Shown one piece after another: positions 2,364-20,438 of a stretch of 64,000 nucleotides of DNA; within the stretch, counting starts at the first letter, position 1, and the number at the start of each line of letters is the position of its first letter. Source of the DNA: Candidatus Bathyarchaeia archaeon. GTDB lineage: Archaea; Thermoproteota; Bathyarchaeia; Bathyarchaeales; Bathycorpusculaceae. The notes beneath the pieces are model-generated. The model made no database searches. It was not told where the DNA came from and saw only the letters and a program-made list of their open reading frames with translations. The stretch is taken from the NCBI GenBank assembly GCA_049512935.1, contig JBEKWR010000003.1:32001-96000 (forward strand). Direction: 5' to 3'. The translations under genes and the position numbers were made by a program.

Positions 2364-2366
2364 CGC

Positions 2367-3027: not shown

Positions 3028-3237
3028 CTATTTTGTTCGTTTCCATTTGGAGGGGTCGCTTAGGTTTTGAACTGGCGAATCGTCAGTGTAGCCCAAGGCT
3101 GTTTGGGTTTTTTGCTTGTATTTTTCCTCTGAGACTTTGGCTTTGCTTTCTTTGGCACTAAGCTCCACGCTTTCCTCAAGCTTGCGTATTGTCCTGCCGA
3201 TCCTGCGTTGACCCTTCGTTACCGTGCATCTTCCCAT
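3028..3237 (-). CDS. Small basic hypothetical protein
   Basis: 69-aa ATG ORF, Lys/Arg-rich, fills an otherwise empty gap. Confidence 0.55.
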   Translation of the reverse strand: MGRCTVTKGQRRIGRTIRKLEESVELSAKESKAKVSEEKYKQKTQTALGYTDDSPVQNLSDPSKWKRTK

Positions 3238-3296
3238 TTTTGGTCAAATGGTAACTAAACAGTTAAAGTTAAAAAACCCTTCCACACTAGTCTTGG

Positions 3297-3740: not shown

Positions 3741-3858
3741 AGAGAAAACGGCAATTAATGCGGATTCGAGGACGGAAGCGTCGGCAAGCAACCGAAAAGC
3801 ACCCCGCTAAGGCTTGACGCTGAAAAAGAGTTTTAAATGTGAATAGCCAAAGGTTTGG

Positions 3859-4578
3859 TTGGGTGCTCCTGTGACTAACGCGTTGTACCTTGTTGACAGT
3901 TACCTTAAAGAAGCCGACGCAAAAGTGGTCTCAGTCAAAGACGGCAAATACGTGGTTTTAGACCGAACAATCTTCTACCCGAATGGGGGCGGACAACCGT
4001 TTGACTGTGGAAAAATCGTTAGGGCTGGTGAAGATTTTGGCGTGGTCTACGTCGGCAAGTTTTCAGGAGAGATTTCCCACGAAGTCGACCATGTGGGTCT
4101 CCAACCAGGCGACAAGGTTCACTTGGTTTTGAACTGGGATAGAAGATACAAGCTTATGCGCAGCCACACTGCCGCCCATGTTGTTGCTTCACTGCTCAAT
4201 CAGGGCACAGGTGCTCTTATCACGGGCAACCAGCTTGACGTGGAACATATTCGATTTGACTTCAGCTTGGAAACGTTTGACCGACAAGTCTTGGAAGAAT
4301 ACCTGAAGAAGGCTAACAAGCTATTCGGCACCGACGTGCCTGTGAAATGGTATGAATTGCCCAGAGAGGAGGCGATGAAGATTCCCGGCGTTGTCAAGAT
4401 GGCAGGCGCGTTTCCACCAGACATTCCATTGCTAAGAATCGTGGAAATCGTGGGCGTCGACAAACAAGCAGATGGAGGCACGCACGTTAGAAACCTAAGG
4501 GAAGTCGGGCAAGTTCAGCTTTTAAAGACAGAAAACAAGGGAAAGAACAACAGGCGCATCTACTTTAAGCTGAACTAA
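3859..4578 (+). CDS. alaX: Alanyl-tRNA editing protein AlaX
   Basis: TIFYPNGGGQPFD, HTAAH and DGGTHV zinc-binding motifs. Confidence 0.93.
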   Translation: MGAPVTNALYLVDSYLKEADAKVVSVKDGKYVVLDRTIFYPNGGGQPFDCGKIVRAGEDFGVVYVGKFSGEISHEVDHVGLQPGDKVHLVLNWDRRYKLMRSHTAAHVVASLLNQGTGALITGNQLDVEHIRFDFSLETFDRQVLEEYLKKANKLFGTDVPVKWYELPREEAMKIPGVVKMAGAFPPDIPLLRIVEIVGVDKQADGGTHVRNLREVGQVQLLKTENKGKNNRRIYFKLN

Positions 4579-4614
4579 AAATTAAAAAAAAGAAAAAGCC
4601 TTAGATTTGAATTT

Positions 4615-6099
4615 CTAAGGTGATACTTCGTCGAGTCTTTTGTTGGCTGTTTTCGGTCCGAACTGGGCGATGATTGCGGAGATTATCTGGAACATCGATA
4701 TAATCACGAACAGTATGAGAATCGACTCAACCGAGCCAGATTTCAGAGTTGTAAGTAATGCTCCGACTATTATGAGTCCGATGCCTCCGCCTAGATGTCC
4801 CAAGCCGTCTGCCATCGCGAATCCAGTTGCTCTTGCACGCGTCGGGAAGCTTTCAGTGACCCACGTGTAAGTTATCGGAACAAAGAAGTCCATGCCGATG
4901 AAGATTAGCAATGCGCCTATGGATGCGAGTGCCAGGTTGCTGACGCCGAAGGCGATTAGTATGCCGCCTACGAATGTGATGGCCGCGGAAATGGGTAGCC
5001 ACCTTTTTCGTTCCATTTTGTCTCCGAGGAAAGAAGCCATGACACCTGCCACGACGAATCCGAAGATGCCTAGCGCGACGACCATGCCGTTTTCGGGGAA
5101 GCCAAATCCTGCGCCTGCAAGAATCGATGACAGGCCTGCCGCGTTAATGTAGACGGTCATGTATCCGAAGAACCACACGAAAAACAGCAGGATTGTTCGG
5201 TTGCGGTACATTTTGTTTTTGAGTATTTCCGTGTATGGAACTGGCTGTGGCTTCTGAACGATTGGAATTGACTCGGGTAAGGGTGGCAGCTCTTCCATAG
5301 ATTCCAAGGCGCGTGCTTCCATTTCCGACACAATTCTGTCGGCTTCTTTGGGACGACCATGCGTTATGAGCCAACGCGTTGACTCGGGCAAACCAAACCT
5401 GAGTAGCACGCCTACCAGCGCGAGGACGCCGCCTATCCCGTACATTACTCGCCAGCCGTTTGTGGCTAAGAATGTTCCAGCGTTCGCAAGCGCAAATGGA
5501 AGACCGTTGGGAAACGCGGTGGCCGGCGTAGTTAATATGAGGCCAACCCAAACCGCTAGAACGGTTCCGATTCCGGCTAGGACGAATAGGAAGGATGTGT
5601 ATTTTGCTCTGCCGTTCTTAGGAGCTACTTCATTAATGTACGAGTTGACGATGGCGAGGTCAGCACCAACACCTATGCCAGTAACGAATCTTGCCAGAGC
5701 GAATTCCCAATAATTTGTGACGACCGCGTTGAAAAGGGAGCCAATTCCCGTTATCAAAAGAGTTACTATTAGCATTTCTCTTCTTCCGAACCTGTCGGAA
5801 AATGGGCTGAGCGCCAAAGCGCCGATCACGTAGCCGATGAGATTCAAAAGAACAACTAACCCCTCAAGGCTTGTCACTGCTGAAGAAGTAGGCGACGTCA
5901 CCCAGCCAAGCGTCATGGCGGTCTGAATGAAAGACACGTTGATGTTGAAAATATCGAAGAAGATAAAGATGTATCCTATTCCCAGTATGCCCATGAAAAG
6001 GTAAGAGAGCGCCCAGATGGGAATCCTGTCTTGCCGCGCGATTATTTTTGCGCCGTCTATTTCTTCTTGAGTAGGCGCATTAGGCAATGCGTCAGCCAT
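4615..6099 (-). CDS. MFS transporter (sugar-porter/aromatic acid-like)
   Basis: About 12 TM segments; SDRFGRR, PESTRWL, ESFPTRARA motifs. Confidence 0.92.
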   Translation of the reverse strand: MADALPNAPTQEEIDGAKIIARQDRIPIWALSYLFMGILGIGYIFIFFDIFNINVSFIQTAMTLGWVTSPTSSAVTSLEGLVVLLNLIGYVIGALALSPFSDRFGRREMLIVTLLITGIGSLFNAVVTNYWEFALARFVTGIGVGADLAIVNSYINEVAPKNGRAKYTSFLFVLAGIGTVLAVWVGLILTTPATAFPNGLPFALANAGTFLATNGWRVMYGIGGVLALVGVLLRFGLPESTRWLITHGRPKEADRIVSEMEARALESMEELPPLPESIPIVQKPQPVPYTEILKNKMYRNRTILLFFVWFFGYMTVYINAAGLSSILAGAGFGFPENGMVVALGIFGFVVAGVMASFLGDKMERKRWLPISAAITFVGGILIAFGVSNLALASIGALLIFIGMDFFVPITYTWVTESFPTRARATGFAMADGLGHLGGGIGLIIVGALLTTLKSGSVESILILFVIISMFQIISAIIAQFGPKTANKRLDEVSP

Positions 6100-6210
6100 T
6101 TAGCTTGCCCCTCCAGACGATGCGGTTAGGCGATTCTTGTTCGAAAGTAGCGGAAAAGCAACCTGTTGGGCTAAGCCATCCCTGCTCGGATAGTTTATTT
6201 GATACAACAT
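6100..6210 (-). CDS. Candidate 36-aa upstream ORF abutting the MFS start
   Basis: ATG at 6210, MLYQINYPSRDGLAQQVAFPLLSNKNRLTASSGGAS*, TAA directly followed by the MFS ATG. Confidence 0.3.
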   Translation of the reverse strand: MLYQINYPSRDGLAQQVAFPLLSNKNRLTASSGGAS

Positions 6211-6261
6211 GATTCCAAAATTATTGTATTAATCAATATATAAGATTAACCCATTGACAGG

Positions 6262-6276
6262 TGTCTAGGCTAGACA
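6262..6276. promoter_or_regulatory. Palindromic operator upstream of the MFS promoter
   Basis: TGTCTAG-G-CTAGACA perfect 7-1-7 inverted repeat about 20 bp upstream of a TATA-like TTATATATT on the minus strand. Confidence 0.5.
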
Positions 6277-6354
6277 GCGCATGATTAATTCGAGCGAGAT
6301 TTAGCAGCTGGGCTGATTTTCTTGAATTTGCCATCGACGTAGAATTCACGGTTT

Positions 6355-7362
6355 TTAGATCCAGCCTTTTCTTCGGAAGACGCTGATCAGCCCTACTGCA
6401 ATGCTGATCATCACCGCAATCATGACCCAGAACCCGTCTATGCTGTTGCTTCCAGGCAGGAAGAATCCGCGTCCAAAGTCGGTTCCGTAAATGCCCGCTA
6501 TCAACGTTAGCGGTAGAAATATGGCTGAAATGATGGTGAGTACCCTGATTATGTTGTTGGTTGTCAACGTTTGAGCGTTAATGATGATGTCGACGATGTC
6601 TTGGATTTCTTCACGGTGAGTATCTACAACCTCGATCAGCGAGATTATTCTGTCGTATAGGTCTTCAAAGCGCGGCAGGGTGACGCTTGAAACAATGGCA
6701 AACTCGCCCCTCGCAGCTCTTCCCACAACCTCGCGGAGCGGCCCAATTGACTGCCTAAGAGCTAACACTTGCTCTCTCGACTTAGCAACTTCCAACCCGA
6801 GAGACCTGTTGGAATCCTTTGGTCTTTGCCTAAAGCGGCTTCCAGCTTCCTGGCTTAAACCCACAAGTTTTTCATGAACCAAGTCGGAAACCAAGAAGCA
6901 CTCGTTCAGAATTAAATCCAGAAAGATGTAAAGTAAAATGTCAGTGGAAGGCGTTAGAGAAAGGGCAAAGTAGCCGTGGGTGCTGATTTTCTTGTAGATT
7001 TCGCAGGTTATGTTAGAATGCCCCTTGTGAACCGAGACCATCCACCTGTCGCTGACCATTAAGGCAACCCATTTTGCTTTTGTTTCTGTAATGAATTGTT
7101 CGCTGCTGGGGAAACTGACAAAACAAGAGACGCGGTCTTCAATTTCCTCTATCTTTGATCGTAAGCCAGCTTCATCGAAGTCCTTTAGGTTGAAGTTTTC
7201 CAACGGAAAGTAACCTTTTAACTGTGCGATTTCAGCTTCGGTAGGGTCTTCAGCGTCAACCCAGAGGATAGAGTCTTCGCTGATTCTACTGGGCAGGGTT
7301 TCCAAGTTGTCTGAGCGCCATTGCCCGCCTTCGAACTTCCTAAGCTGAGTGACGGTTAACAC
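6355..7362 (-). CDS. corA: CorA-family Mg2+/Co2+ transporter
   Basis: WVDAEDPT, C-terminal LTIISAIFLPLTLIAGIYG + 2 TM + RRKGWI; signature GMN is GTD here. Confidence 0.9.
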   Translation of the reverse strand: MLTVTQLRKFEGGQWRSDNLETLPSRISEDSILWVDAEDPTEAEIAQLKGYFPLENFNLKDFDEAGLRSKIEEIEDRVSCFVSFPSSEQFITETKAKWVALMVSDRWMVSVHKGHSNITCEIYKKISTHGYFALSLTPSTDILLYIFLDLILNECFLVSDLVHEKLVGLSQEAGSRFRQRPKDSNRSLGLEVAKSREQVLALRQSIGPLREVVGRAARGEFAIVSSVTLPRFEDLYDRIISLIEVVDTHREEIQDIVDIIINAQTLTTNNIIRVLTIISAIFLPLTLIAGIYGTDFGRGFFLPGSNSIDGFWVMIAVMISIAVGLISVFRRKGWI

Positions 7363-7659
7363 TTTTCGTCTGTTGCTCCGTTTAATATTCTGGGGAACTT
7401 GTTTCTAAACTTATTCAGTGCTGTCCGCTTATTTTAAGAAATTGCCACGGTTCCAACCCGGCTTGACATCTTCACCTTGTGAACACCTATGGGCGGCATC
7501 AAAGATTTTGAAAGCCACCGATGTGTTCATCCCAGTTAAAATGAAGAGAGAAATTAGATTTGGGTTTGTTTTGGGAAAAATGGGTTAAGTAGGAGCGGTA
7601 GGGTTTATCTGTTAAGTGAGGATTAGCATGGCAGGAATCGGAACTGGAGGCAAGTAGGG

Positions 7660-9249
7660 CTGGCTGGCAAAGCTAATGAAATCGCTAAGGTTTCTGCAAG
7701 GGGTGGTTTTCACCTCTTCTGGGGCATTGTCTTATCGACCGTTGTCTTAGCGGTCGGCATGATTGTTTTAGCCAGAATCCTTCAGCCGCAGCAGTACGGT
7801 TTGTACACGATTGCGTTGGCAGCGCCAAACTTGATTGGCACGTTCCGCGATTGGGCCATGAACTCAGCCATGATCAAGTACTCTGCGCAGTACAGCGCTG
7901 AGGAAAAACCAGAGCGGGTGCGAAGCATTCTCATGGCAGGTTTAATTTTTGAGCTAATTTTAGGTCTGACGCTTACTTTTGTGTCGTTTCTGCTTTCAGG
8001 TTTCATTGCGGAAGACATTTTTAAGAGACCCATAACCGCCTTGATTCAAATATCGTCAATCAGCATATTGGCGAATGCTTTCCTGAACGCCGCTACAGCG
8101 ACTTTTACAGGCAGAGAACAGATGAAACCCAACAGCTTCACGCTCGTGTTGGGCGCTCTGTTTCGCTCGATTTTATGTCCAGTGCTCGTGTACGTGGGTT
8201 TCGGCGTTTCAGGCGCCGTTGTAGGTTACGCGGCGGGCAGTCTTGGCGGAGGCTTAGTTGGTTTCATCTTAATGATGGCTATCTATCGAAGCCTAAGGCA
8301 GAAGCCGGGTTTGGCGGAAAACTTGAAAATTTGGGAAACTATGAAGTTCATGTTCCGATATGCCCTGCCTCTGTCTTTCTCCAGCATCTTCAACAGTTTC
8401 CTCATTCAGTTTTACAATTTTATAATAGCCATCTACGCCTCAAACTTCCTCATAGGCAACTACGCTGTGGCTAACAACTTCACCGTTCTGCTCACTTTTT
8501 TTGCGACGCCCATAACAACCATGCTTTTTCCCGCCTTCTCAAAGCTGGACGCTCAACATGACAGAGAGACGTTGCAGATTATTTTTAAAAGTTCAATAAA
8601 GTATTCTTCGCTGCTTGTGATTCCTCCAACCGTGGCTGTAATGGCTTTGGCTCACCCCTTGGTTTCCGCTCTGTTCGGCGACAAGTACGCGTCCGCTCCC
8701 ATGTTTCTTGCCCTGCTCGCCATCAATTATCTGTTTACTGCTTTCGGACAGTTAAGCACGCTGAACCTTATCAGCGGTCAAGGGAAAACGAGGTTTTACT
8801 TTGAGCTCTTTGTCATTAACACGGCGTGGGGGATTGTCTTGGCGGTTCTGCTTGTTCCAACCTTCGGTGTGGTGGGGCTGATTATAACAACTATTTTCGA
8901 CGGGGTTCCAGGGCTCGCCATATCCCTTGAGTGGATCAAGAGGAATTACGGCGCGAGCGTGGATTGGGTTTCCTCAGCGAAGATACTGTTTTCCTCTTCC
9001 ATGTCGGGAGTAGTAACGTATGTCTTCCTTTCATTCGTGAGTTTAAGCAGTTGGCCCAAGTTAATACTTGGAGTTATAGTCTTTTTCGTGCTGCTGTTTT
9101 TAAGCCTGGTCTCTACCCGAACGTTTAGAAAACCCGACGTCGACAACCTCCGAACCATGACCAGCGGCTTGGGCCCGATAAGCGGCATAATCAACAAGGT
9201 TCTAGACGCTGTGGAAAGACTCGTGAACATATTGCTCTCAATTGCTTAG
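7660..9249 (+). CDS. Oligosaccharide/polysaccharide flippase (MOP/Wzx-like); likely CTG start
   Basis: Many TMs, LARILQPQQYGLY; frame open upstream of ATG 7759 to CTG 7660, preceded by GGAGG. Confidence 0.85.
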   Translation: MAGKANEIAKVSARGGFHLFWGIVLSTVVLAVGMIVLARILQPQQYGLYTIALAAPNLIGTFRDWAMNSAMIKYSAQYSAEEKPERVRSILMAGLIFELILGLTLTFVSFLLSGFIAEDIFKRPITALIQISSISILANAFLNAATATFTGREQMKPNSFTLVLGALFRSILCPVLVYVGFGVSGAVVGYAAGSLGGGLVGFILMMAIYRSLRQKPGLAENLKIWETMKFMFRYALPLSFSSIFNSFLIQFYNFIIAIYASNFLIGNYAVANNFTVLLTFFATPITTMLFPAFSKLDAQHDRETLQIIFKSSIKYSSLLVIPPTVAVMALAHPLVSALFGDKYASAPMFLALLAINYLFTAFGQLSTLNLISGQGKTRFYFELFVINTAWGIVLAVLLVPTFGVVGLIITTIFDGVPGLAISLEWIKRNYGASVDWVSSAKILFSSSMSGVVTYVFLSFVSLSSWPKLILGVIVFFVLLFLSLVSTRTFRKPDVDNLRTMTSGLGPISGIINKVLDAVERLVNILLSIA

Positions 9250-9333
9250 CTCGGAGGTCAAGGACTTTTGGCAAAATGGTTTCTGCTGGTTCCGTTAGAA
9301 TTGCATCTGGTCAAATGGTGTTTCGAAGTTTTG

Positions 9334-9963
9334 TCACTGAATTATTGTTACCTGTACTGGTGCTGTTTGAAATCCGTAAGTTGGGCTGCTTTCGCCGACG
9401 ATGAAGTATGTTCCCGGTGGCACTTGTGTGGCTTCTGTTGACGTTGAGATGTTGCTTGTCTGCGGCCAAACGTATGTTGCGGTTACGTTTTCACCGGGCT
9501 TTAGAGAAATTAATGTGACAAACTGGGGGAAGGCTTTGCCGATGGACCATATGTAGATGATGCTGTTTGAATCATTGTAGACAAGGAAGTTAAAGTCCAT
9601 TCCGGTATGCGTGAAGCTTACGGTCTGATCGCTGACGTTCGTAATAGTCAACGTCACGTTAACTGGTTCCCCAACGTTGTAGACGGTTTTTTCAAGAGAC
9701 AAAGTGAGCTCAAGGCTTTCGTTGCCAGTTTTCGTTGGCGCGGGGGTCGAGGTGGGAGTCTGCGTTGGAACAGGAGACGGCGAATTTGTGGCTGTTGGAA
9801 TCGGCGTTATAGGCGACGGACTTGTCTCCGACAAGTTTTCGGGAACGTTTGATTCTACTGTCCTGCTTGGCTGGAGCTTTGTTAACGCGAAACCTAAAGC
9901 GACACCGCTTAGTATAACGATCACGACTGCAATTGCCAGAAGCTTCAATTTATTAGGTGCCAT
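9334..9963 (-). CDS. Membrane-anchored protein with P/T/S linker and BsuPI-like Ig domain
   Basis: N-terminal TM, TPTSTPAPT linker, WSIGKAFPQFVT...LKPGE...VPPGTY. Confidence 0.7.
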   Translation of the reverse strand: MAPNKLKLLAIAVVIVILSGVALGFALTKLQPSRTVESNVPENLSETSPSPITPIPTATNSPSPVPTQTPTSTPAPTKTGNESLELTLSLEKTVYNVGEPVNVTLTITNVSDQTVSFTHTGMDFNFLVYNDSNSIIYIWSIGKAFPQFVTLISLKPGENVTATYVWPQTSNISTSTEATQVPPGTYFIVGESSPTYGFQTAPVQVTIIQ

Positions 9964-10034
9964 TACAGGTCAACCTTGCTTCCGACAAATCATATGTTTC
10001 TCTTGGTTCATAACTCTTTTCTTTAGAACATACC

Positions 10035-10081
10035 GCTGAGGCTGGCAATTGAACCCATATGTGACCGCTCTGCAGGCTATC
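10035..10081 (-). repeat. Degenerate tRNA-Cys fragment (att-like copy 5)
   Basis: 40/47 match to 14789-14835. Confidence 0.8.
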
Positions 10082-10089
10082 TATTGTGC

Positions 10090-10320
10090 TTACCTCTGGC
10101 TATTCACAAGCGCACCGCTGGAGAGAGTTTCAACGCCCATGTTTTCTGCAGCTTTAGCAAAATTTGTTGTCGTCGGTGACCAAGGTTTTGTTGTTTTTCT
10201 TTGCCTCTGCAAGGTAAGCAGAGTCATAAAATGTCAAGTTAAATTTGTGCGCTGTGTCCAGTATTTCGTTTCCTTTTTCATTACTCAGCAGGGCTACCTG
10301 CATGCGTGCATCTGACAGAG
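10090..10320 (-). pseudogene. VapC/PIN toxin C-terminal remnant, frameshifted
   Basis: EILDTAHKFNLTFYDSAYL...LVTDDNK, then shifts into AKAAENMGVETLS; N-terminal half absent. Confidence 0.75.
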
Positions 10321-10326
10321 AAAGCA

Positions 10327-10686
10327 CTAGTTTTTTCCGTGGCACAGAGGGGTAAGAACCTTGGTGAGTTGCTCGTATTTTGGGATCTTACCTTCGATGG
10401 TTTCAAACCTACATCTTTCCTTCCCGTCTTGGAAGACAAGTATGAAAGGCGTTTGCAGTCCGTTCAGTTTGGCGTTTCCGATGTACTTCTTCAGCTGGGC
10501 GTTTCTTTCTTGCAGGACTGCCTCGCAGATCTCCACCTCGGGAAACTGCTTATGCACTTGGGGGAGGACATTTTCCTTAAAATCGGCGCAGTGGGAGCAA
10601 CTTCTGAGGGTTACGACAAGGAGTGCGATTTTTTTCTGGTTGATGAATGCATCGTAATTCGCACTTGTTATTTGCTTAAGCTCCAT
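10327..10686 (-). CDS. Thioredoxin-like protein
   Basis: CSHC motif, cis-Pro TPFILVFQDGKE. Confidence 0.82.
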   Translation of the reverse strand: MELKQITSANYDAFINQKKIALLVVTLRSCSHCADFKENVLPQVHKQFPEVEICEAVLQERNAQLKKYIGNAKLNGLQTPFILVFQDGKERCRFETIEGKIPKYEQLTKVLTPLCHGKN

Positions 10687-10764
10687 ACTCTTATTCGCTT
10701 CGAGGGGGTTATTTAGACTATTCGTTCACTAAGAGAGTTTCTACCGCTTTGTGCTAAGGAGATA

Positions 10765-10813
10765 TGGAGTTGGGGATGGGCTTTTGAGTTGAGGTGCGAT
10801 TCCCTTCCCCGCT
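10765..10813. repeat. tRNA-Cys 3' fragment (copy 4, 10765-10780) plus an inverted degenerate copy (10793-10813)
   Basis: TGGAGTTGGGGATGGG 15/16 to the tRNA 3' end; GGTGCGATTCCCTTCCCCGCT resembles the tRNA 3' end in the opposite orientation. Confidence 0.6.
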
Positions 10814-10994
10814 TAGGGTACAAAGAAGCGGCTTGCATTTTCATTACATTCGGCACCCCAGATCGATAATCCTGTTTATAGAATAAGCCTCAGACTTAGT
10901 GCTGGCGTACACTTCGTTGGCAATCAACATGTCAAGAAAAGATTTAGATAGCAGTATTCAGTTAGCGCATTTGTGAAACGAAAGAAGGGGTAAA

Positions 10995-12377
10995 TTGCTC
11001 AGTAAGGTTAGTTTCACAAAATTGATAATTGAAGTCTTCCCCATCTTCATCATTCTAATTGGAGTTGCATTCGTTTCATTTTCACTGGGGCCATATCAAA
11101 CTTATGACACGCAACTGGAATTCGAAGCTGCGTCAAACGTGGTTAAAATGGGTATTCCCTTTGTGAAGGGTTTTGGTACAGTGATTGATCAGCCGCCGTT
11201 AGGATTCTACATTGAAGGGTTATTCTTTAGAATTTTTGGTTTGTCAATTAACACAGGTGTAACCTTAGTGACTCTTTTTGGGCTTGGATCTGTTGCCTTA
11301 GTATATATGATTGGAAAGCAATTGTACGGCAAAGCAACAGGACTTCTCGCAGCCGCTCTTTTCGGTTTGAACCCGTGGCAACTTGTTCTCTCAAGAAGCT
11401 TCCTTATTGATTCTCAATGCCTTTTCTTCAGCCTGCTCTGTTTGTACGTGGGCATTTTTGCTATCAACAGAAGTTCAGTTAAGCTCAGTTTGGTTGCAGG
11501 AGTGGTTTTTGCCGCTGCTATCCTAACAAAGTTTTTTGCTGCTTTCGTACTCATCCCACTGCTCTTATTCTACATTTATTCACGACCGAAAAAAACAAAG
11601 CAGATACTTGGCCAATTAGCGGCATTTTCAATACCAGCGTTCGTGTCTGCGCTTTTCTGGTATCAAATTTTCCTTGGTCGTTCGCTGCTTTCAATTTTTA
11701 ATAACAATAATATCGTCGTAATTCCCGCAAGTACTCACGTGGTTCCTTCTCCGTTTTTTGTAATCAATTTTCTTGTACATTATGGGGTGGGATGGTACTT
11801 TCTGGTTGCAACAGTTTTCTCCTTGATTTTGGTTCTGTCGCTTAAAAATTATTTTTCTAAAGTAATTATTGTTGATTTAGTATGCGTGGCGACAATTGCT
11901 TTTATTTTAAGCGTTAATGTTGTTATGGGCGCAGTTTTCAAGCTTAATGTGCCATATTTTAGCGCCATTAAATATGATTACCAAGCTTTGCCATTTCTTG
12001 TTTTATTAGTAGCGTCGTTAACAACAAAGAGCCTCGCAGCGTTTAGAGCAGCAAAATCAACTGTGCATCTGAAAAAACTTATGTTTTATTTGGCTGCTAT
12101 AGCAGCGGTGATACTGCTTGCTGCATCGTTGATTTCAAGCATGTTTTACACAAATGCGGTTTCCACACTCAGTTACCTGCAGTACAGAGTGGAGCCGCAA
12201 GTTAATTACGGATATGCACTCTCGACCCCTAACCCGTTAACGGCTAGCAGCCCGTTAATGGCGCTTCAATATTTGGGCTTCGCAGTTGCGTTATCTGGAC
12301 TTTTGTTTGGACTATTTTGCGTGACTAGGCATAAGATTCGGTGGTTATTCAAGCGAGAAAACGCTCAAAAGGCTTAA
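10995..12377 (+). CDS. GT-C membrane glycosyltransferase (GT39/ArnT/PMT-2-like)
   Basis: DQPPLGFY, SRSFLIDS, AILTKF motifs; multi-TM; AT-rich. Confidence 0.85.
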   Translation: MLSKVSFTKLIIEVFPIFIILIGVAFVSFSLGPYQTYDTQLEFEAASNVVKMGIPFVKGFGTVIDQPPLGFYIEGLFFRIFGLSINTGVTLVTLFGLGSVALVYMIGKQLYGKATGLLAAALFGLNPWQLVLSRSFLIDSQCLFFSLLCLYVGIFAINRSSVKLSLVAGVVFAAAILTKFFAAFVLIPLLLFYIYSRPKKTKQILGQLAAFSIPAFVSALFWYQIFLGRSLLSIFNNNNIVVIPASTHVVPSPFFVINFLVHYGVGWYFLVATVFSLILVLSLKNYFSKVIIVDLVCVATIAFILSVNVVMGAVFKLNVPYFSAIKYDYQALPFLVLLVASLTTKSLAAFRAAKSTVHLKKLMFYLAAIAAVILLAASLISSMFYTNAVSTLSYLQYRVEPQVNYGYALSTPNPLTASSPLMALQYLGFAVALSGLLFGLFCVTRHKIRWLFKRENAQKA

Positions 12378-12510
12378 TCTATATTTTAAAATAAGTTACT
12401 CAGCGGCAGACCTTAACCCTTGAAAAGTCATAGTCACCGCTCTCTCTAAAATCCAAGCGTAAGCATGACCAGAGCACGTAATGAAAAACTAAGGCACCAA
12501 AGCTGGACTA

Positions 12511-12542
12511 TGAAGCTGGGGGGAATGGGAATTGAACCCATA
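12511..12542 (-). repeat. Degenerate tRNA-Cys 3' fragment (copy 3)
   Basis: TGAAGCTGGGGGGAATGGGAATTGAACCCATA; small insertion and one mismatch versus the tRNA. Confidence 0.8.
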
Positions 12543-12560
12543 ACCGTCAAGGATGCGAGT

Positions 12561-12956
12561 CTATTTAATGTCGTCTAACGTGGAAACGTTTGCCACTGTT
12601 GTTATTTTTTTGATTAGCCGCAGGTCTTCCGTTATCAGTTTTAGTTCTTTTGCCTTAGCAAAATAAACGTATGAAGCGTCATAAAAAGTAATTTTTAGCT
12701 TGATTGCAGTATCTAATATTTCCTCTTCGCTGTCGGTTATTTCTATTACATTCATTATGTTTAAGGTGTGCTTGATTGACTTTGCCAGCATTTTTGCTTC
12801 TTGCTCTGAAACCTTTGCTTGTAAGGCATAATCTTTCCATATGATGTTTCCCAGTTCGTATCTCGCTAGTTCTAATGTGTAGTTTCCAGTCAAAAAATCA
12901 ATTTTGTTTTCTTTAATTGCTCTAAATATGGCTGATGAATCAAAAAGACACTTCAT
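12561..12956 (-). CDS. vapC: VapC PIN-domain toxin
   Basis: FDSSA, YELGN, TFYDASY, ITEDL acidic PIN residues. Confidence 0.92.
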   Translation of the reverse strand: MKCLFDSSAIFRAIKENKIDFLTGNYTLELARYELGNIIWKDYALQAKVSEQEAKMLAKSIKHTLNIMNVIEITDSEEEILDTAIKLKITFYDASYVYFAKAKELKLITEDLRLIKKITTVANVSTLDDIK

Positions 12957-13195
12957 CGGCTATCACGGTCTTCTCTTATGCTTTTCACTACATCTTCAAC
13001 GCTGATTTTCTCAAGTATCGGCTTTAGCCTCTCTATCTCTTCTTTTAGCTCTTCTACCTCTCTTTTTTTCACTTCATCTTCAAGGGCTTTTCGCAGAATC
13101 TTAGACGGCTTGATTTTGAACTTCTGAATTTTTTCTTTGAGTTGCTTGGGGATTTTTGTAGAAACTGTACATTGCTGCACCATTATTCTCACCAC
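12953..13195 (-). CDS. vapB: VapB-like antitoxin (RHH)
   Basis: TVSTKIPKQLKE...LRKALEDEV...IREDRDSR; ATGA overlap with vapC. Confidence 0.85.
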   Translation of the reverse strand: MVRIMVQQCTVSTKIPKQLKEKIQKFKIKPSKILRKALEDEVKKREVEELKEEIERLKPILEKISVEDVVKSIREDRDSR

Positions 13196-13258
13196 AAATT
13201 ACTACTTTAAAGTAAGATAAAACAGTTTCCGTAATATGCATAGAAAAAAAGTAACGTA

Positions 13259-13281
13259 TGGAGCTGGGGATGGGAATTGAA
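13259..13281 (-). repeat. tRNA-Cys 3' fragment (copy 2)
   Basis: TGGAGCTGGGGATGGGAATTGAA, 23/23 identical to 14785-14807. Confidence 0.9.
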
Positions 13282-13401
13282 ACAGGTTTTTTTATGCCTT
13301 CTATAGATTAGCAAACCCGCGCTTATGCCAATAACTAATGCCGCCGTTAAAGCAATAGCCGTGATTACTGGAGTTAAAACTAGTTTGGCTAACGGGCGCA
13401 A
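13282..13401 (-). pseudogene. Remnant C-terminal membrane anchor of a surface protein
   Basis: TPVITAIALTAALVIGISAGLLIYRRHKKT (TM + basic tail) running directly into the tRNA fragment. Confidence 0.45.
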
Positions 13402-13746
13402 GATGCACGATTATTTTTATTTAACCGCTTGCATTAGAGCATGCTGCCTGTGAAGATAAACACGTCAGTCGGAGAAAGGATTGGTAGTCCTATCGATGAT
13501 GTCAGTTAACGAATTCTGAGGCACACGAAAACAATAAACAAAGAGCGCCTTGACTTGATCAGCAATTCACAGAAAATTGAAAGCCGAATGAATCAGATTC
13601 TCTGTGAGAAACTCGGTTAAGAATGTTGTATAAACTGGTAATGCCATGGATGGTCCAATCCTCGAATTCTCTTAATAAATGTCTCAGAAGTGCATTCCCC
13701 TAATATGCTGTCTAAGTTAGAGTTGAAACTCGATGTTTGCAGACGT

Positions 13747-13791
13747 TGGAGCTGGGGATGGGAATTGAACCCATATATAACAGCTCTGCAG
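13747..13791 (-). repeat. tRNA-Cys 3' half (att-like copy 1)
   Basis: 45/45 identical to 14785-14829, ending in the anticodon loop. Confidence 0.95.
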
Positions 13792-13858
13792 ACGCTACAA
13801 TAAAACAAGAGAGATTAGCATATACGCAGGTGTTAACAACAAATATCCCAGAGCTCGG

Positions 13859-14344
13859 ATGAACATGAAACCCGTACGGCAAGTTTATCTTGATACAAAT
13901 ATTTACTGTCGCCCGCTGGATGATCAAAAAGATAGACGCATCAATGCCGAAACCCAAGCCTTGCTGAAAATTGTTGATGCGAATGAAAAAGGAGAAATAG
14001 CGATAATAAGCTCGGAATATGTGAAGTTTGAAATCGAGAAAGTAAAATACCCGCTAAAAAGGAAAAATATCCGAGGCTTCGAGAAAATCCTAAGCAAAGC
14101 CAACGTAACTAGCAGTAAAAGACTAATCACACTAGCCAAAGAAATCAACGCGAAATGCAACCTCAATTCCTTAGACGCCCTCCACTTGGCAGCAGCCTGC
14201 ACAGGCAAAGCAAATTTTTTTCTAACCTGCGATGATGAAATTTTAAACGACAGAAATTGTATTGAAACATTAGTGGCAAATAAAGGGTATGAGTTAAAAG
14301 TTAGGAATCCAATAAATTATATAAGAGAACATGAGGAAGAGTGA
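13859..14344 (+). CDS. PIN-domain toxin
   Basis: YLDTNIYCRPLDDQ...LDALHLAAA...FLTCDDEIL. Confidence 0.9.
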   Translation: MNMKPVRQVYLDTNIYCRPLDDQKDRRINAETQALLKIVDANEKGEIAIISSEYVKFEIEKVKYPLKRKNIRGFEKILSKANVTSSKRLITLAKEINAKCNLNSLDALHLAAACTGKANFFLTCDDEILNDRNCIETLVANKGYELKVRNPINYIREHEEE

Positions 14345-14573
14345 CATAAGAATGACTACGTCGCATATAGCCACTGTGGAAGTCCCCTTTGAAGCCCTAG
14401 CCAAAGAGCTTGGAACAAAAAGAGCAATAGAGTTCATCAGCGAAATAAAAGAGTGCTATGGCGACTCTGTTGTTGAATTAAGAAAAGCCACCGAAACACT
14501 TACCATTGAACAAATAGAAGAAGAAATAAAAAAATCTAAAAAAGCAAAAATCGATAATTTTGAAAAAGAGTAA
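14331..14573 (+). CDS. Putative antitoxin downstream of the PIN toxin
   Basis: Small ORF overlapping the PIN stop; EALAKELG..RAIEFI...GDSV pattern. Confidence 0.7.
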   Translation: MRKSDIRMTTSHIATVEVPFEALAKELGTKRAIEFISEIKECYGDSVVELRKATETLTIEQIEEEIKKSKKAKIDNFEKE

Positions 14574-14784
14574 CTTACCACTTTAAATTTTGTTGTTAGT
14601 AGTCAAGAAATTTTTAGCGAATTTCTGACCTCTTACTTCCAATTTCCTGCCCTAAAAACGCTCTGTACAAATAAAATTTTAATTGCTTTATTATTTATGT
14701 TCAATGAAGCATTCCTCAGCAAAACGTTTGTCACGCAAAAAATGAAAGCTGCCCAAAGAGTTTGAAGCTCCAAACTTTATGCAG

Positions 14785-14860
14785 TGGAGCTGGGGATGGG
14801 AATTGAACCCATATATAACAGCTCTGCAGGCTGTCGCCTGAACCATTCGGCCACCCCAGC
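14785..14860 (-). tRNA. tRNA-Cys(GCA), encoded CCA, no intron
   Basis: GCTGGGG acceptor stem, ACAGC-CTGCAGA-GCTGT anticodon arm, ATGGG-TTCAATT-CCCAT T arm, TCCA end. Confidence 0.96.
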
Positions 14861-14952
14861 ATCCTAAGTCTAGGATTTTGTCTCACATAAAAGTATTGTT
14901 GGCTTGGTTCGGTTTTTTGTTGTTAACGCTAACTTGCTTTTAGCATGGGTTG

Positions 14953-15315
14953 CTATTTCTTGAACGCTAACCCTGAGAAGAGCGCCACCATCTTTTCTCC
15001 GCTCTTCACCGTGACCTGGTAGAGACCCGTCGTTTTTCCGTCGGAAACCCGCGTTGCCTCCGCCACTAAAACGTCGCCTTCAACCGACGGTCTCAAGTAG
15101 TTGATGCTTACCTGTACCGCGACTGCGACGTTGTCGCCGTAGTTGCATGCGTGTGCGAAGGCGTAGTCCGCCAGCGAGAAGACTGCGCCGCCGTGCGTGA
15201 AGCCAAGCGCGTTGGTGTGGTTTTTCTCAACTTTCATGCATACCCGTGCGTAGCCGTCTCTGGATTCTTCAAGGTGAATGCCGAGTGCTTCTGCAAAATG
15301 GTCTTTTCCCTTCAT
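14953..15315 (-). CDS. paaI: PaaI-family thioesterase
   Basis: HGGAVFSLADYAFAHACN; near paaK. Confidence 0.9.
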   Translation of the reverse strand: MKGKDHFAEALGIHLEESRDGYARVCMKVEKNHTNALGFTHGGAVFSLADYAFAHACNYGDNVAVAVQVSINYLRPSVEGDVLVAEATRVSDGKTTGLYQVTVKSGEKMVALFSGLAFKK

Positions 15316-15902
15316 GCCTGTGCGCCCATGAACCGTGCATATAGCGCGTTACTCTAAATAAAACTAGCTGTGCACACGGCGGCTGCCTCCCTGTTCCCAG
15401 ACGTGCCTATCCAAGAAAAACGCGCTTGGACGCCTGTATTTGGGTCCTGCAGATGCGCCCAAAAGGCGTTTTGTGCAGAATTGCCCGTTTTTCCTTGAAG
15501 AGTCAGCTGCAAAAAACCATGAATTAAGCCCTAAAGCTAAAAAGCAGTCTGAAACAAGCCCTGATTGTACGAGAAAGTGGAGGGAAACAGGTATCAATGG
15601 GTTTATACCTGAAAAATTGGCTGAAAGTTTGTTTTTCGCGTCGGAGAACACGGATTTGATCTGCTTGGTTTAGGCTCTAAACCAAAAAAGCAACATGAAT
15701 CAAGCCCTGACCTACCAGATAGGGAGGGGGGAGGGGGTCTAGTATTTGTGACCAAAAACCAACACAAAAAAGACGTATGTTGACTCTCAGCTTAATTAAA
15801 CCCATTATTGCGACCCTATAGGGTAGGCTACTATTTGTGACAAAATTCCATCACAAAAAGCGCTTCAACCACCGGCATCCTACGACAAAACCGCAGCCCA
15901 AA

Positions 15903-16493
15903 TCAGCCTTGCAGGACGCTGTCTCTGCCCTGCTGGAAGGCTTTGAGGTTTATGTTGATGTATTTTTCTTTAAGCCTGCCCGCGATGGCCCTCTGAAACG
16001 ACTCCGCATTAACAGGAACCTCGGGAAGGGCAGAGAGCGCGCCGAGCAGAACGGTGTTCACCACAAGCGGGTTCCCAAGCTTTGCAGCTATGCCTGCCCC
16101 GTCAACCTCATGAACCCTCGCCTTATCCCTCAGAATCTGCATCAACTCCCCCATCTTCTTAGGCCTCACAGCTGAGCCGACAACGCACGGCGGAATATAC
16201 TTCGTGTTCACAACAACATCGCCGCCTCGCCTAAGCATCGGCAGCGCCCTCGCCGTCTCAAGAACCTCAAAACCCACCAGAACATCCGCCCGCCCAGCCT
16301 CAATCAGCGGCGACTCAACCTTATCACCGATCCTCGCGTAAGCCACGATCGAACCGCCCCGCTGAGCCATCCCGTGAACTTCAGCCTTGGCAACGTCGAA
16401 ACCGTCCAGTATCGCCGCTTCACAGTAGATGTCGCTTAGGACCACGACTCCCTGTCCGCCGACACCGCTGAAAACCATGTCAAGCCGCCTCAC
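15903..16493 (-). CDS. iorB: Indolepyruvate:ferredoxin oxidoreductase beta subunit (GTG start overlapping the iorA stop)
   Basis: GVGGQG, EVHGMAQRGGS, NTVLLGAL, NLKAF. Confidence 0.93.
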   Translation of the reverse strand: MRRLDMVFSGVGGQGVVVLSDIYCEAAILDGFDVAKAEVHGMAQRGGSIVAYARIGDKVESPLIEAGRADVLVGFEVLETARALPMLRRGGDVVVNTKYIPPCVVGSAVRPKKMGELMQILRDKARVHEVDGAGIAAKLGNPLVVNTVLLGALSALPEVPVNAESFQRAIAGRLKEKYININLKAFQQGRDSVLQG

Positions 16494-18682
16494 TTCTCCC
16501 GCCTCCTTATCGCTTGGGAGGGACAGACGACGTCGCAGACGCCGCATCCACTGCACAATGTCGCATCAACCTCAACATGACCGCTAGCCTTAGAAATGGC
16601 TGGGCAACCGAACGCTTTGATGCAGACCTCGCAATCGTTACATTTCTCCGTGACCTCTCTCGGCTCGCCCCTCTCAATCAGAAGCGGGCAAGGCCTCTTC
16701 GAAATAACAACTGAAGGACCCCTGTAATCAAAAATCTTCCTAAGAGCAGCGATCGTGCCCTCAACGTCATACGGGTCAACAACCTCAACCCTGTCTATCC
16801 CAAGACCCCTAGCAACATCCTCAAGCTTCAAAATCTTAGAATCCAAGCCCATAGCCGTCTTCCCCGACCCAGGCGTCGGCTGATGCCCAGTCATCGCCAC
16901 TGTGCTGTTATCCAGAATGACCACGCACACGTCAGCCCTGTTGTACACGATGTTCATCAGCCCAGGCATTCCCGCATGGAAAAACGTTGAGTCCCCGATA
17001 ACCGCGAACACTTTATCCTTCACGCCAGCATGAACCATCCCCGCAGCCTGCGAAATCCCCGCCCCCATGCACAGGCAGGTTTGAACCGCGTTGACAGGCG
17101 GCAGAACACCCAGCGTGTAGCAACCGATGTCGCCCGTCACGATCTTGTCGCTTGAATTCCCCGCCAAGCTCAAAGCTCCCTCAGGGCAGAAACCGACACA
17201 TTTCGGGTCACCACCGCACATGTCGCAAATCATGGCTTTATGCGTGCCAGGATTCACCGTGATTGCCCCGTACTCGCAGGCTTCAATGCACCAAGGGCAA
17301 CCCTTGCACTTCTCATCGTCAACCAGCAGCGCACCAGTTTCAGGTGATCGCCCTATTGCTTTTTCAGGACAAGCCTTGATGCACGCGGCGTCAACGCAGG
17401 CTTTGCAAGTTATCGCCGTGTTGAAAGTCTGACCGATCCTCACCGACCGTATTCGAGATTTAAGCGGGTTGAAGACTCTCTCTTTCTCAAAAGAGCAAGC
17501 GTACTCGCAGATGCTGCAGCCCACGCATTTATCGTTGTCACAGCTAACATGCTGATTAACCATGTTCAACGCATAGTAAAACGCCCTGTGGGGACAGCCT
17601 GGACAAAGCGTCGGCGGCCTCGGCTGCAAATCCAAAACCTCCGGTGCCTCCGCCTTGTCAGCCAATCTTAAACTTGCGAAGGCTTGGCGTACTTTATCGG
17701 GCGTTAACTCGCCAATTTCCTCCAAACCCAGCTCGTTCTTTCCCAGGAACTGCAAACCTAACCCGCGGATGTTCTCCTCCAAATAAGGCCTCAGCTCCTC
17801 AACTACTATGAGCTTCTTAACTTTGAGCGCAAATCTTTCAACAATTTCCTTAGGAAAAGGATAAACAAGACCCAGCTTCAACCAAGAAAACTTTTTCGTA
17901 TCAAGCACCGATCGAGCATAGTAGTAACCAACACCGCTTCCTACAATTCCAATCTCGCTCGCATTGTCTTCAATCACGTTAAACTTCGAATGATTGACAA
18001 GCGTCTTTGCCTCTGCCATCTTTACCTCCAAAACTCTACGCTGCCGAATAGCGTTTGCCGGCACCATCACCCATTTTGAACCTTGCTTATCAAAATCGGC
18101 CTTGCGACTCAAGTTGTGCATCCGCCCGAGTTTCACCCTGGCTTTCCCATGAGCCACCCGCGTCGTCAAACGCAATATGACCGGCAAGTGCAGTTTTTCA
18201 CTTAATTCAAACGCCTCTCTAGCCATATCCAAGGCTTCCTGAGGGTTACCTGCATCCAGCAAAGGCAACTTCGAATGAACCGCAAAGTATCTTGTATCCT
18301 GCTCATTTTGGCTGCTATGCAATGACGGGTCGTCGCACACGGCGATAACCATTCCACCCTCGATGCCCGTGTACGCCAACGTCATAGCAGCGTCAGCAGC
18401 AACATTTAACCCAACATGCTTCATAGAAACAATAGAGCGAACCCCCGCCATCGAAGCACCCGCAGCCACCTCCGTCGCAACAACCTCGTTGGTGCTCCAT
18501 TCGGCGTAAACGCCAAATTCTTTTGAAACCTCGGCGAGCGTTTCCAAAATTTCAGTGGCAGGTGTTCCAGGGTAGGAAGCTGCGACCTTGACGGTTGCTT
18601 CAATCGCGCCTCGCGCCACTGCCTCATCGCCGTTAAGCAAAGCAAAGAAGCCTGGCTTATCTGCCGCAATTTTGGAAGTCAT
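16490..18682 (-). CDS. iorA: Indolepyruvate:ferredoxin oxidoreductase alpha subunit with an inserted 4x[4Fe-4S] domain
   Basis: YPGTPATE, MKHVGLNVAAD, SSQNEQD, CPGCPHR, GDIGCYTLG, GDSTFFH, C-terminal ferredoxin. Confidence 0.94.
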   Translation of the reverse strand: MTSKIAADKPGFFALLNGDEAVARGAIEATVKVAASYPGTPATEILETLAEVSKEFGVYAEWSTNEVVATEVAAGASMAGVRSIVSMKHVGLNVAADAAMTLAYTGIEGGMVIAVCDDPSLHSSQNEQDTRYFAVHSKLPLLDAGNPQEALDMAREAFELSEKLHLPVILRLTTRVAHGKARVKLGRMHNLSRKADFDKQGSKWVMVPANAIRQRRVLEVKMAEAKTLVNHSKFNVIEDNASEIGIVGSGVGYYYARSVLDTKKFSWLKLGLVYPFPKEIVERFALKVKKLIVVEELRPYLEENIRGLGLQFLGKNELGLEEIGELTPDKVRQAFASLRLADKAEAPEVLDLQPRPPTLCPGCPHRAFYYALNMVNQHVSCDNDKCVGCSICEYACSFEKERVFNPLKSRIRSVRIGQTFNTAITCKACVDAACIKACPEKAIGRSPETGALLVDDEKCKGCPWCIEACEYGAITVNPGTHKAMICDMCGGDPKCVGFCPEGALSLAGNSSDKIVTGDIGCYTLGVLPPVNAVQTCLCMGAGISQAAGMVHAGVKDKVFAVIGDSTFFHAGMPGLMNIVYNRADVCVVILDNSTVAMTGHQPTPGSGKTAMGLDSKILKLEDVARGLGIDRVEVVDPYDVEGTIAALRKIFDYRGPSVVISKRPCPLLIERGEPREVTEKCNDCEVCIKAFGCPAISKASGHVEVDATLCSGCGVCDVVCPSQAIRRREK

Positions 18683-20014: not shown

Positions 20015-20173
20015 TATGCAAACCCCTTTTTCTGGGTTCTTTGAGTACACCATTTCGTTTGACTATTAGATAAAAGTTCCCCAGTTTCCTCGGTTGAAAC
20101 GAATCTGCTGCATGAAGGAAAAGCTTCCGAAAAGGCGGTTTTTTCCGTTTTTTTGGCGTGAATAATTTTTTAA

Positions 20174-20301
20174 GTTGCGACTTTTGCTACGGGAAAGTTG
20201 CGACTTTCCGCCCCAGTTCTTTGTGTTTCGGGTTGCTTTTTTGGTTTGGAGCTTGAAGGCGTTTGAGCGTTGCGACTTTGGGATGGGCGGGTTGCGACTT
20301 T
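20174..20301. promoter_or_regulatory. Four GTTGCGACTTT direct repeats in a divergent intergenic region
   Basis: Copies at 20174, 20197, 20269 and 20291; AAAGTTGCGACTTT is quasi-palindromic. Confidence 0.65.
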
Positions 20302-20438
20302 CAATGTTGACCCAATGTTGACGGCATTGTCGGATATGGGCGCGGCGGGTTTTCCCGGCGGCAAGTTTCAGAATGTTACCTGCAATTCATAATTAATATA
20401 AATATTGTAACCGCTAATACAGCAAAGGCAAGGTTAGG

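Follow-up and report, generated by a model that had tools for sequence, protein, structure and literature searches.

How does a row of small modules without an integrase come to stand beside a single tRNA gene, each module framed by copies of that gene's 3' end? The question is raised by a locus in a 64,000-nt stretch of DNA, hereafter the window (contig C3, positions 32001-96000), of a Bathyarchaeia genome designated G000 (2.30 Mb, 49 contigs, 93% complete). Five cassettes, numbered c1 to c5 with c1 proximal to the tRNA, follow a tRNA-Cys gene there and alternate with five copies of its 3' part, f1 to f5. The array is an accretion at a tRNA-Cys integration hot spot of this peat genome. As to its origin, we favor, at a probability of roughly 0.6, the explanation that such site-bounded modules would have been moved with or by autonomous elements, along the route described for cis-mobilisable elements (CIMEs), and that toxin-antitoxin (TA) pairs would persist among them because their loss is penalised. 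Below, G-numbers denote congener genomes (genus set, n = 120), L-numbers fetched loci or metagenome stretches, and X-numbers sequencing runs; C-numbers are contigs, positions without a contig or L-number are those of the window, and the extents of site copies are given in tRNA numbering.

The tRNA gene and the copies of its 3' part were located as follows.

14785-14860, minus strand: tRNA-Cys(GCA), the integration target (ARAGORN; Rfam tRNA, 64.2 bits)
14785-14829: proximal attachment site, the 3' 45 nt of tRNA-Cys
13747-13791, minus strand: f1, long class, tRNA positions 32-76, 45/45 identical
13259-13281, minus strand: f2, tRNA positions 54-76, 23/23 identical
12511-12542, minus strand: f3, degenerate, tRNA positions 48-76, with a 3-nt insertion and 1 mismatch
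10765-10780, minus strand: f4, short, tRNA positions 61-76, 15/16 identical
10035-10081, minus strand: f5, long class, tRNA positions 26-72, 40/47 identical

All five copies have the same sense as the tRNA and lie 3' of the intact gene, at lower coordinates. An earlier reading made from the sequence only had proposed these five same-sense copies, and counting confirmed them: a 23-mer with up to 3 mismatches gave 3 matches against 0.00 expected from 100 shuffles, and a 31-mer gave 2 against 0. The tRNA gene is identical at 76/76 positions in G013 and G016, and in a search of 9000-16500 against Rfam it alone reached its family threshold. An alignment with related loci showed f3 to be a long-class site minus 12 nt. 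Taken alone, f4 is weak, scoring 14 in a gapped local scan of 20 kb in which shuffled sequence scored 12-15. It is backed by its register, which ends on CCA, by the flank TATGGAG that it has in common with f2 (family D2), and by the homologous junction in G004, which also holds an attachment-site fragment. The G+C content was 0.35-0.43 over about 10.8-14.7 kb, versus 0.51-0.58 past the tRNA.

The cassettes, each bounded on both sides by tRNA 3' copies, were delimited as follows.

13792-14784, plus strand: c1, 993 bp, PIN toxin (13859-14344) and overlapping 80-aa partner (14331-14573)
13282-13746, no strand assigned: c2, 465 bp, without an intact gene; internal-deletion derivative with its junction near 13546
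12543-13258, minus strand: c3, 716 bp, vapBC pair, VapB-like (12953-13195) and PIN/VapC (12561-12956)
10781-12510, plus strand: c4, 1730 bp, GT-C glycosyltransferase (10995-12377; Pfam PMT_2, E 4e-20)
10082-10764, minus strand: c5, 683 bp, thioredoxin-like gene (10327-10686) and 63-aa C-terminal PIN remnant (10154-10345)

The cassettes are small, mostly hold one module, and have tight margins of 15-110 nt; the TA operons occur in both orientations relative to the site. By their sequence, c1 and c3 each encode a predicted PIN-domain toxin beside a small partner, in the one-operon organization of VapBC/PIN type II systems. The c1 PIN domain scored 31.2 bits in Pfam (cut-off 23.6); its 80-aa partner overlaps it by 14 nt and matched no family, and the arm of c1 beside the tRNA is an AT-rich stretch of 211 nt. 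The c3 genes overlap by 4 nt, with margins to the sites of 63 and 18 nt. The c3 PIN match, at 19.9 bits, is weak and does not reach the cut-off, and the scores of the homologs in G044 and G094 were 28.9 and 26.2 bits; the VapB-like protein of 80 aa matched NCBIfam VapB at E 2.6e-9, again below the cut-off. For c4, a homolog was found only of a 103-nt edge (10781-10883), in G004 beside an attachment-site fragment. The claim of one module in each interval was borne out by the contents of c1, c3, c4 and c5; the surface-protein tail that had been assigned to c2 was not, as the 64-aa open reading frame (ORF) there has no family match.

That the array lacks an integrase, as had been claimed, held up. 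Neither integrase nor transfer genes were found in it by Pfam on the main ORFs or by tblastn with MCM and the two integrase families described below. With the integrase of G005, an integrase remnant of G002, MCM and four element ORFs as tblastn queries against 9000-15500, the best E value was 0.12, and with the SSV-type integrases the sole match in the array was the peptide encoded by the site. When the cassettes c1 and c3 and those of G000 contig C6, G094 and G096 were circularized in silico, no long ORF ran across the site; the same operation on the integrase-bearing elements of G067 and G069 gave ORFs of 333 and 355 aa.

Such elements were found at the same repeats in relatives. Among 35 site-to-site intervals, five, of 5.9-15.7 kb, held an intact integrase; the elements measured 5989 bp in G005, 7036 and 5884 bp in G069, 15660 bp in G073 and 7340 bp in G067. 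Their integrases belong to two types. The unsplit type (383-418 aa, PF00589, 54-66% mutual identity) was present in G005, G069 and G073, in elements that carry an MCM-like helicase (G005) or, within this set, methylases and a DUF5906 primase-helicase (G073). Its gene lies on the other strand and adjoins the tRNA-proximal site, and the distal site begins at about tRNA position 51 and covers about 25 nt. The other type is SSV-type, with ORFs of 326 aa in G067 and 294 aa in G069 (29% mutual identity, E 1e-31). Here the start codon precedes the distal site by a few codons, and the gene runs through the site antisense and on into the element (ORFs crossing the site: L045 9451-10431, L046 12518-13402 and L129 2500-3462). 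The site is 45-55 nt long and extends from about position 22-33, in the anticodon stem-loop, to the tRNA 3' end. Since it occupies about codons 3-20, the integrated gene is nearly whole (294-326 aa). Against PF16795 ("Archaeal phage integrase", cut-off 27) the G069 and G067 proteins scored 28.3 and 25.3 bits, and against phrog_5127 the E values were 4e-12 and 4e-5; the only sequence matches in the PDB were weak ones to 4dks, 3vcf and 3uxu ("Probable integrase", E 0.16-0.79). The SSV-type family was found in 53 of the 120 genus genomes, G000 not being one of them. A trace of it is also left in the window, where the ATG at 14780-14782, followed by CAG and the site, reads MQWSWGWELNPYITALQ, the N-terminus of a G069-type SSV-type integrase (read from the sequence and compared with the G069 ORF). 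Therefore, the tRNA-side arm of c1 keeps an integrase start codon without the integrase body.

The ends of the site fragments were also informative. For the 39 fragments in relatives, the 5' start lay at positions 47-52 in 21, at 22-35 in 12 and elsewhere in 6, and 35 of them ended at positions 73-76. With ends clustered in this way, the boundaries look set by recombination rather than by random erosion. Integrase debris was found as well: G002 has a 163-aa remnant beside a site, and G000 has C-terminal remnants on C21, C16, C27 and C9. PF00589 gave 2 matches in G000, neither of them near the array. As a separate observation, an intact 511-aa integrase (PF00589 with a SAM-like N-terminal domain) is encoded on C2 at about 123053-124588 (L063 2053-3588), abutting a tRNA-Gln 3' fragment 4.6 kb downstream of tRNA-Gln(CTG). 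By its sequence, this locus looks like another stacked site, with a live integrase.

The tRNA-Cys 3' end is used widely. Its 23-nt pattern matched 112 of the 120 genus genomes (reversed control, 0), many of which carry 2-6 same-strand copies spaced 0.5-42 kb, and the gene content between the tRNA and the far flank differs from species to species. In 48 metagenome contigs with the exact 45-nt site, many different sequences directly follow the tRNA; the window's own strain was absent among these contigs, whose thioesterase gene was 71-84% identical to that of the window. In viral contigs, the exact 28-nt tRNA-Cys 3' end gave 0 matches.

A fresh insertion could be observed in a pair of metagenome sequences from a species other than that of the window's strain. 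L122 and L129 match at 99.92% over 2545 nt, and their sequences part at the inner end of the site. Past the site, L122 has the intact tRNA, and both L129 and L116 (99.85% identical to each other) have a 320-aa SSV-type integrase reading out of the site; that of L129 is 68% identical to the G067 enzyme. The occupied and empty sites thus differ exactly at the attachment site. The resident neighbor in L122 and L129 is a PIN/UPF0175 cassette of a type found on G000 contig C6. This difference indicates that new elements insert next to the tRNA and move the older modules outward, as has also been described for tycheposon islands and for tandem integrations in archaea.

Decay is equally visible. Judged from their sequences, c2 and c5 are deletion remnants. 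The former keeps both arms of a 2733-bp module of G016: L021 9971-10187 corresponds to window 13762-13545 (83%), and L021 12446-12601 to 13548-13395 (91%). In G093 the c2 version measures 1621 bp and matches window c2 at 93.9% over 312 nt. The 2.7-kb parent module of c2 in G016 is likewise without an integrase, and none of the cassettes led back to a complete parent element. At c5, the stretch 10035-10310 (its distal 276 nt with f5) aligns with intact vapBC cassettes at an identity of 82% in G094 and 74% in G044, which makes c5 a vapBC cassette that was truncated and joined to a thioredoxin gene. In addition, part of c2 (13404-13524) has an approximately 90% identical copy on a separate 648-nt contig in runs X1, X4 and X5, which fits the X-arm homology to G016 and G093.

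Have the modules also moved since they lost, or without ever having, an integrase? The array of G093 consists of the tRNA, an extra 1.36-kb module, a c1 homolog, a longer c2, and c3. The c1 homolog lies between sites, is 84.8% identical over 715 nt and has broken ORFs. The window segment 12539-13578, which comprises f2, c3 and part of c2, shows 94.5% identity with G093 across 1043 nt, non-coding sequence included, whereas the adjacent thioesterase gene is 76.8% identical and other core stretches are 74-82% identical. The age gradient proposed earlier, with perfect copies near the tRNA and mutated ones beyond, is therefore a true description but not a simple clock, as c2 and c3 came as a block. 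The c3 homologs are 94.9% identical in G093 and 84.4% in G096, where the match covers 12509-13281, exactly from f3 to f2, and the neighbor is a cassette of the C6 type. The order in L113 is tRNA, c3-type, degenerate site, c2-like, versus tRNA-c1-c2-c3 in the window, and in L110 a c3-type cassette adjoins the tRNA.

Loci related to the c3-type vapC number 40, in Bathyarchaeia as well as in other archaea; 22 of them have an amino-acid identity of at least 66%. The DNA homology of c3-type cassettes (73-95%) ends at about 12509-12562 and 13228-13281. A junction made of the vapC stop, 8-10 nt and a site starting at position 27 is common to 8 of the 12 aligned c3-type loci; the integrase-less unit therefore predates its spread. 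Further, f1 is identical to the tRNA at 45/45 positions and its G093 counterpart at 43/44, though the c1 interiors differ by 15%, which suggests that the f1 sites were renewed or conserved.

A similar cassette was found away from any array tRNA. On C6 of G000 (44023-45054; L004 13017-14055), a PIN/UPF0175 pair lies between two tRNA-Cys fragments of the window type with no tRNA beside it, and this cassette is 88% identical to its G004 homolog, versus 72-82% for core genes. Contig C45 of G004 carries five site fragments with 1-kb cassettes, two of which are PIN/UPF0175 pairs. Several other features of these regions were noted. Next to the C6 cassette, a CBS-domain gene has the orientation opposite to that in most congeners, in which the CBS and Fer4 genes stand side by side and point away from each other. 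L004 12367-12527 is a short dispersed repeat (also in G004, G013, G016 and G031 besides G000) upstream of a 134-aa ORF of no known family (L004 12536-12940), the tail of which recurs just distal to a site fragment twice in G000, twice in G004 and in G094. G000 has three more tRNA-Cys(GCA) genes, at C6 36095-36169 and C6 39655-39729 (L004 5096-5170 and 8656-8730) and at C49 755-827. The two on C6 are 92% alike and unlike that of the window; 3.5 kb separates them within an island of low G+C content that holds glycosyl- and acetyl-transferases.

Small TA modules bounded by tRNA fragments are not confined to tRNA-Cys. In G000, at least 10 of the 37 tRNA genes are followed within 5 kb by a same-sense repeat of their 3' end. 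The interval nearest to the tRNA (0.7-1.0 kb) consists, in 6 of those 10, of a two-gene TA-like pair, and no two of these pairs are of the same family.

tRNA-Met: DUF5615/DUF433
tRNA-Leu(GAG): DUF4258/DUF2283
tRNA-Thr: ParE/DUF2683
tRNA-Gly(TCC): MazE/PIN
tRNA-Leu(CAG): Asp-protease-like gene and DUF5678
tRNA-Cys: PIN and 80-aa partner

The pairs of DUF Pfam families at these tRNA genes we take to be toxin-antitoxin systems. The tRNA-Pro array holds an MNT/HEPN pair, and a paralog of the c3 PIN protein (64% amino-acid identity) lies between two tRNA-Leu fragments. Of 16 intervals of at most 1.1 kb that were examined, 8 held an intact two-gene TA-like pair and 3 a TA remnant. Predicted TA pairs of at least seven families are thus found as minimal attachment-site-bounded cassettes at many tRNA genes. 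The individual TA intervals of 0.7-1.1 kb, at tRNA-Met, -Leu, -Thr, -Gly and -Pro (G000 C1, C4, C5, C12, C23, C27 and C3:144588-145479; L054-L062), run from the tRNA gene to its 3'-end copy or between two tRNA-Leu fragments. A further duplication concerns tRNA-Sec, of which an 84-nt copy, 95% identical, lies about 1 kb upstream and was not called by ARAGORN (G000 C6 50388-50471 and 51427-51510).

Taken together, these data show that two families of tyrosine integrases insert circular elements into the 3' part of tRNA-Cys in relatives, each integration duplicating the site and displacing older inserts away from the tRNA. The five modules of the window have lost their integrase, or never had one, and have kept sites on both sides. 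From there, the following course of events is suggested. An integrase from a co-resident or newly arriving element might still act on any direct pair of sites, so that an integrase-less module could be excised, carried with an autonomous element, re-integrated, and left behind on the exit of that element, which is the accretion-mobilisation route of CIMEs. Such a route would account for exchange between species, for reordering at sites and for a perfect 45-nt repeat around an old cassette. TA pairs would dominate the small modules because cells losing them are poisoned, and they would thus survive both deletion and excision. The earlier proposal that att-bounded cassettes are moved in trans gained indirect support, in that homologous integrase-less cassettes are present in many species, their homology ends at sites, orders and neighbors vary, and the identity of some far exceeds that of the core; by the criterion of refutation that the sequence-only reading had set, the integrase-bearing elements of relatives count against a pure mini-cassette system.

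A stronger form of this explanation would make the 0.7-1 kb TA modules minimal non-autonomous elements, each consisting of one tRNA-derived site and one addiction module, which parasitise SSV-type or other integrases of autonomous elements, arrive together with these elements and remain after their departure, spread in this way across species and tRNA loci, and build integron-like arrays at many tRNA genes. We put it forward tentatively, as a possibility with the odds somewhat against it.

Several observations weigh against mobilisation of the modules. The genomes compared are metagenome bins, and core identity was taken from few genes. In G000, whose assembly is 93% complete, neither tRNA-Cys integrase family is represented by an intact gene. 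The contigs of four runs over 9000-16000 showed no excision product, circle or cassette-less variant of the array, although rare forms are invisible in contigs. Only one joint was seen, from 13792 to 14787, in X1 alone, with 27 nt on the shorter side and a depth of 11.8; it most likely reflects the paralogous C6 cassette, the site fragments of which are about 976 nt apart and which was placed at 90% likeness. Among the 22 close c3-type homologs, the distal site is recognisable in 9 and the proximal one in 4. The identity of the c5 type to G094, 82%, equals that of the core. At the same locus in G016 and G119, the tRNA-Met cassette is 66-74% identical, below its flanks at 75-77%, and this TA cassette appears to be old and to have been passed on vertically. 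Site-by-site homologous recombination or differential deletion, without an integrase, could have brought about much of the reshuffling, and several arrangements fit one ancestral order with differential loss, namely C6-type, c3, c4, c5 and the 134-aa ORF.

The main rival explanation is pure in-situ decay, in which serial integrase-bearing insertions were whittled down by deletion and the pieces never moved again, similarities being due to vertical descent, differential loss and occasional recombination between repeats. The sequence-only reading had offered serial insertions eroded to remnants as one of its two alternatives, and this part is well founded: large intact elements occupy the same site in relatives, one strain pair has a fresh insertion, c2 and c5 are deletion derivatives, and integrase remnants persist beside the site in G002 and elsewhere in G000. 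The old tRNA-Met cassette and the many decayed c3-type sites are also in its favor. As a complete account, however, decay without later movement appears unlikely. It leaves unexplained why c2-c3, non-coding parts included, should be so much closer to G093 than the adjacent core is, why c2 and c3 are swapped in L113, and why the same vapBC-site junction recurs in different contexts. Random erosion predicts neither clustered 5' ends nor complete 3' ends, and f1 is perfect while the c1 interior is 15% off its G093 homolog.

A dedicated integron-like platform, on which the tRNA would capture cassettes in the manner of attI, single-function cassettes would be made and inserted by a specialised integrase working in trans, and the array would be a gene reservoir, is very improbable. 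Chromosomal integrons are built of small cassettes bounded by recombination sites, and TA cassettes are thought to stabilise their arrays. The array resembles them in its small, mostly single-module, TA-bearing cassettes with tight margins, and in both the window and G093 the tRNA-proximal cassette is small and without an integrase. However, the locus has no IntI-type gene, no attI and no common promoter, for which the two orientations of the TA operons leave no logic, and its boundaries are plain tRNA 3' copies, not attC-like sites. The integrases at these sites come from integrative elements of the ordinary kind, which carry replication genes of the MCM or D5 type; the one new insertion seen, in L129, bears an integrase; and the same pattern recurs at 10 of the 37 tRNA genes and at loci without a tRNA. 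The label of an integron-like, attI-type platform given in the first reading is thus not supported.

No assembly artefact underlies the layout of the array itself. Runs X1-X3, of peat samples with this population, contain 0.99 of the sequence words. A Logan contig of run X1 spans 9000-13776 with 0 differences and others span 13762-14814 and 14834-15614; they break solely at the 45-nt repeat and have depths of 10.2, 11.6 and 10.4. Contigs of X4, X5 and X6 bridge f2-f5, again with 0 differences. Mis-assembly or mis-binning of the repeats or their order, a concern because the 45-nt repeat exceeds the 31-mers of the contig graph and breaks contigs, can practically be dismissed, as independent contigs of four runs reproduce f2-f5, depths in X1 are equal, and the array of G093 is colinear.

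How does mobilisation of integrase-less modules compare with known systems? Stacks of decayed elements anchored at tRNA genes are already known in bacteria and archaea. A close parallel is the accretion-mobilisation of integrative and conjugative or mobilisable elements (ICEs/IMEs) of streptococci. CIMEs, as defined in the part of PMC5704250 available to us, have attL/attR-type flanks and no integration genes, stand in tandem at tRNA 3' ends, receive new entries beside decayed residents and have been proposed to transfer as composites; the modules at tRNA-Cys share these traits, composite transfer being a proposal here too. Measured against that description, the window differs in its archaeal host, in having no conjugation genes, in an SSV-type enzyme among the partners whose gene overlaps the site, and in far smaller modules (0.5-1.7 kb) that are mostly TA; cis-mobilisation would here be deduced from sequence comparison. 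The tycheposon islands of Prochlorococcus (10.1101/2020.12.28.424599) are likewise tRNA-anchored, with partial tRNA copies between elements, newcomers that push older ones inward, fragmented integrases and scattered partial tRNAs. Their host is bacterial, their integrases are of other lineages and their cargo concerns nutrient uptake; the accessible portion of that report describes no predominance of TA mini-cassettes.

In archaea, tRNA-integrated elements, the "suicidal" integrases of the SSV type and tandem integrations have been described (PMC7253208, PMC8371274, PMC6563490, PMC3119797). There too the site lies inside the integrase ORF and matches the 3' part of the tRNA, captured elements decay and remain as traces, elements with non-suicidal integrases are known to form tandem arrays, and excision by an integrase in trans has been proposed. 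The Thermococcales survey, in its accessible part, states that tandem insertion was never observed among 73 suicidal integrases (PMC7253208). Unlike that set, the present system has long-class (SSV-type) sites in tandem; in addition, its site lies at the extreme 5' end of the integrase gene, and its hosts are mesophilic and live in peat, not hyperthermophiles. What is new is the archaeal host group, the tandem SSV-type sites, the site at the start of the integrase gene and the regular 0.7-1 kb TA cassettes at many tRNA genes. We found no description of attachment-site-bounded TA cassettes at archaeal tRNA genes in the full-text literature, subscription journals not being covered.

Bathyarchaeia are abundant, uncultured members of peat and sediment communities whose mobile elements are almost undescribed. 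The tRNA 3' ends are busy integration sites in them, and SSV-type integrases, known mainly from hyperthermophiles, are common in this mesophilic peat genus. Mobilisation of the cassettes, be it in trans or in cis, would account for the shuffling of addiction modules and of small accessory genes (a glycosyltransferase, a thioredoxin) in genomes without a matching integrase, and would offer a simple in vitro system made up of two 45-nt sites and one integrase. If the TA modules are in fact minimal elements, they would provide a concrete mechanism for the long-noted horizontal mobility of archaeal TA pairs; should they be no more than wreckage, the locus would be a common and amply documented case of island decay.

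The surroundings of the array were also delimited. Two features are relevant here.

14953-15315, minus strand: 4HBT thioesterase, the fixed edge on the tRNA 5' side (Pfam)
4579-10034, no strand assigned: further non-ancestral DNA, with an MFS transporter (4615-6099), CorA (6355-7362), a flippase (7759-9249) and a BsuPI-like gene (9334-9963) (Pfam)

The thioesterase gene adjoins tRNA-Cys in 11 of the 12 congener loci fetched. The conserved far flank (AlaX, AHSA1, FtsY, prefoldin and eIF6) maps to window 1-4578, and in three metagenome contigs the tRNA lies at most 20 nt from the AHSA1 homolog. With the flanks fixed at 4578 and at the tRNA, about 10 kb (4579-14784) is therefore inserted DNA, of which the array forms the tRNA-proximal half. 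A local-alignment scan of 4579-10030 gave no further site copy above the shuffled range. Outside the array, the spacer between the thioesterase and POR-gamma genes (15524-15860) is a multi-copy dispersed repeat, with many 73-88% matches on G000 C1, C4, C11, C21, C30, C31 and C44 and in G004; its summed contig depth in the runs is very high. Another short repeat of the dispersed kind lies at about 20135-20367 of the window and has many copies of 76-89% identity in G093 and G094.

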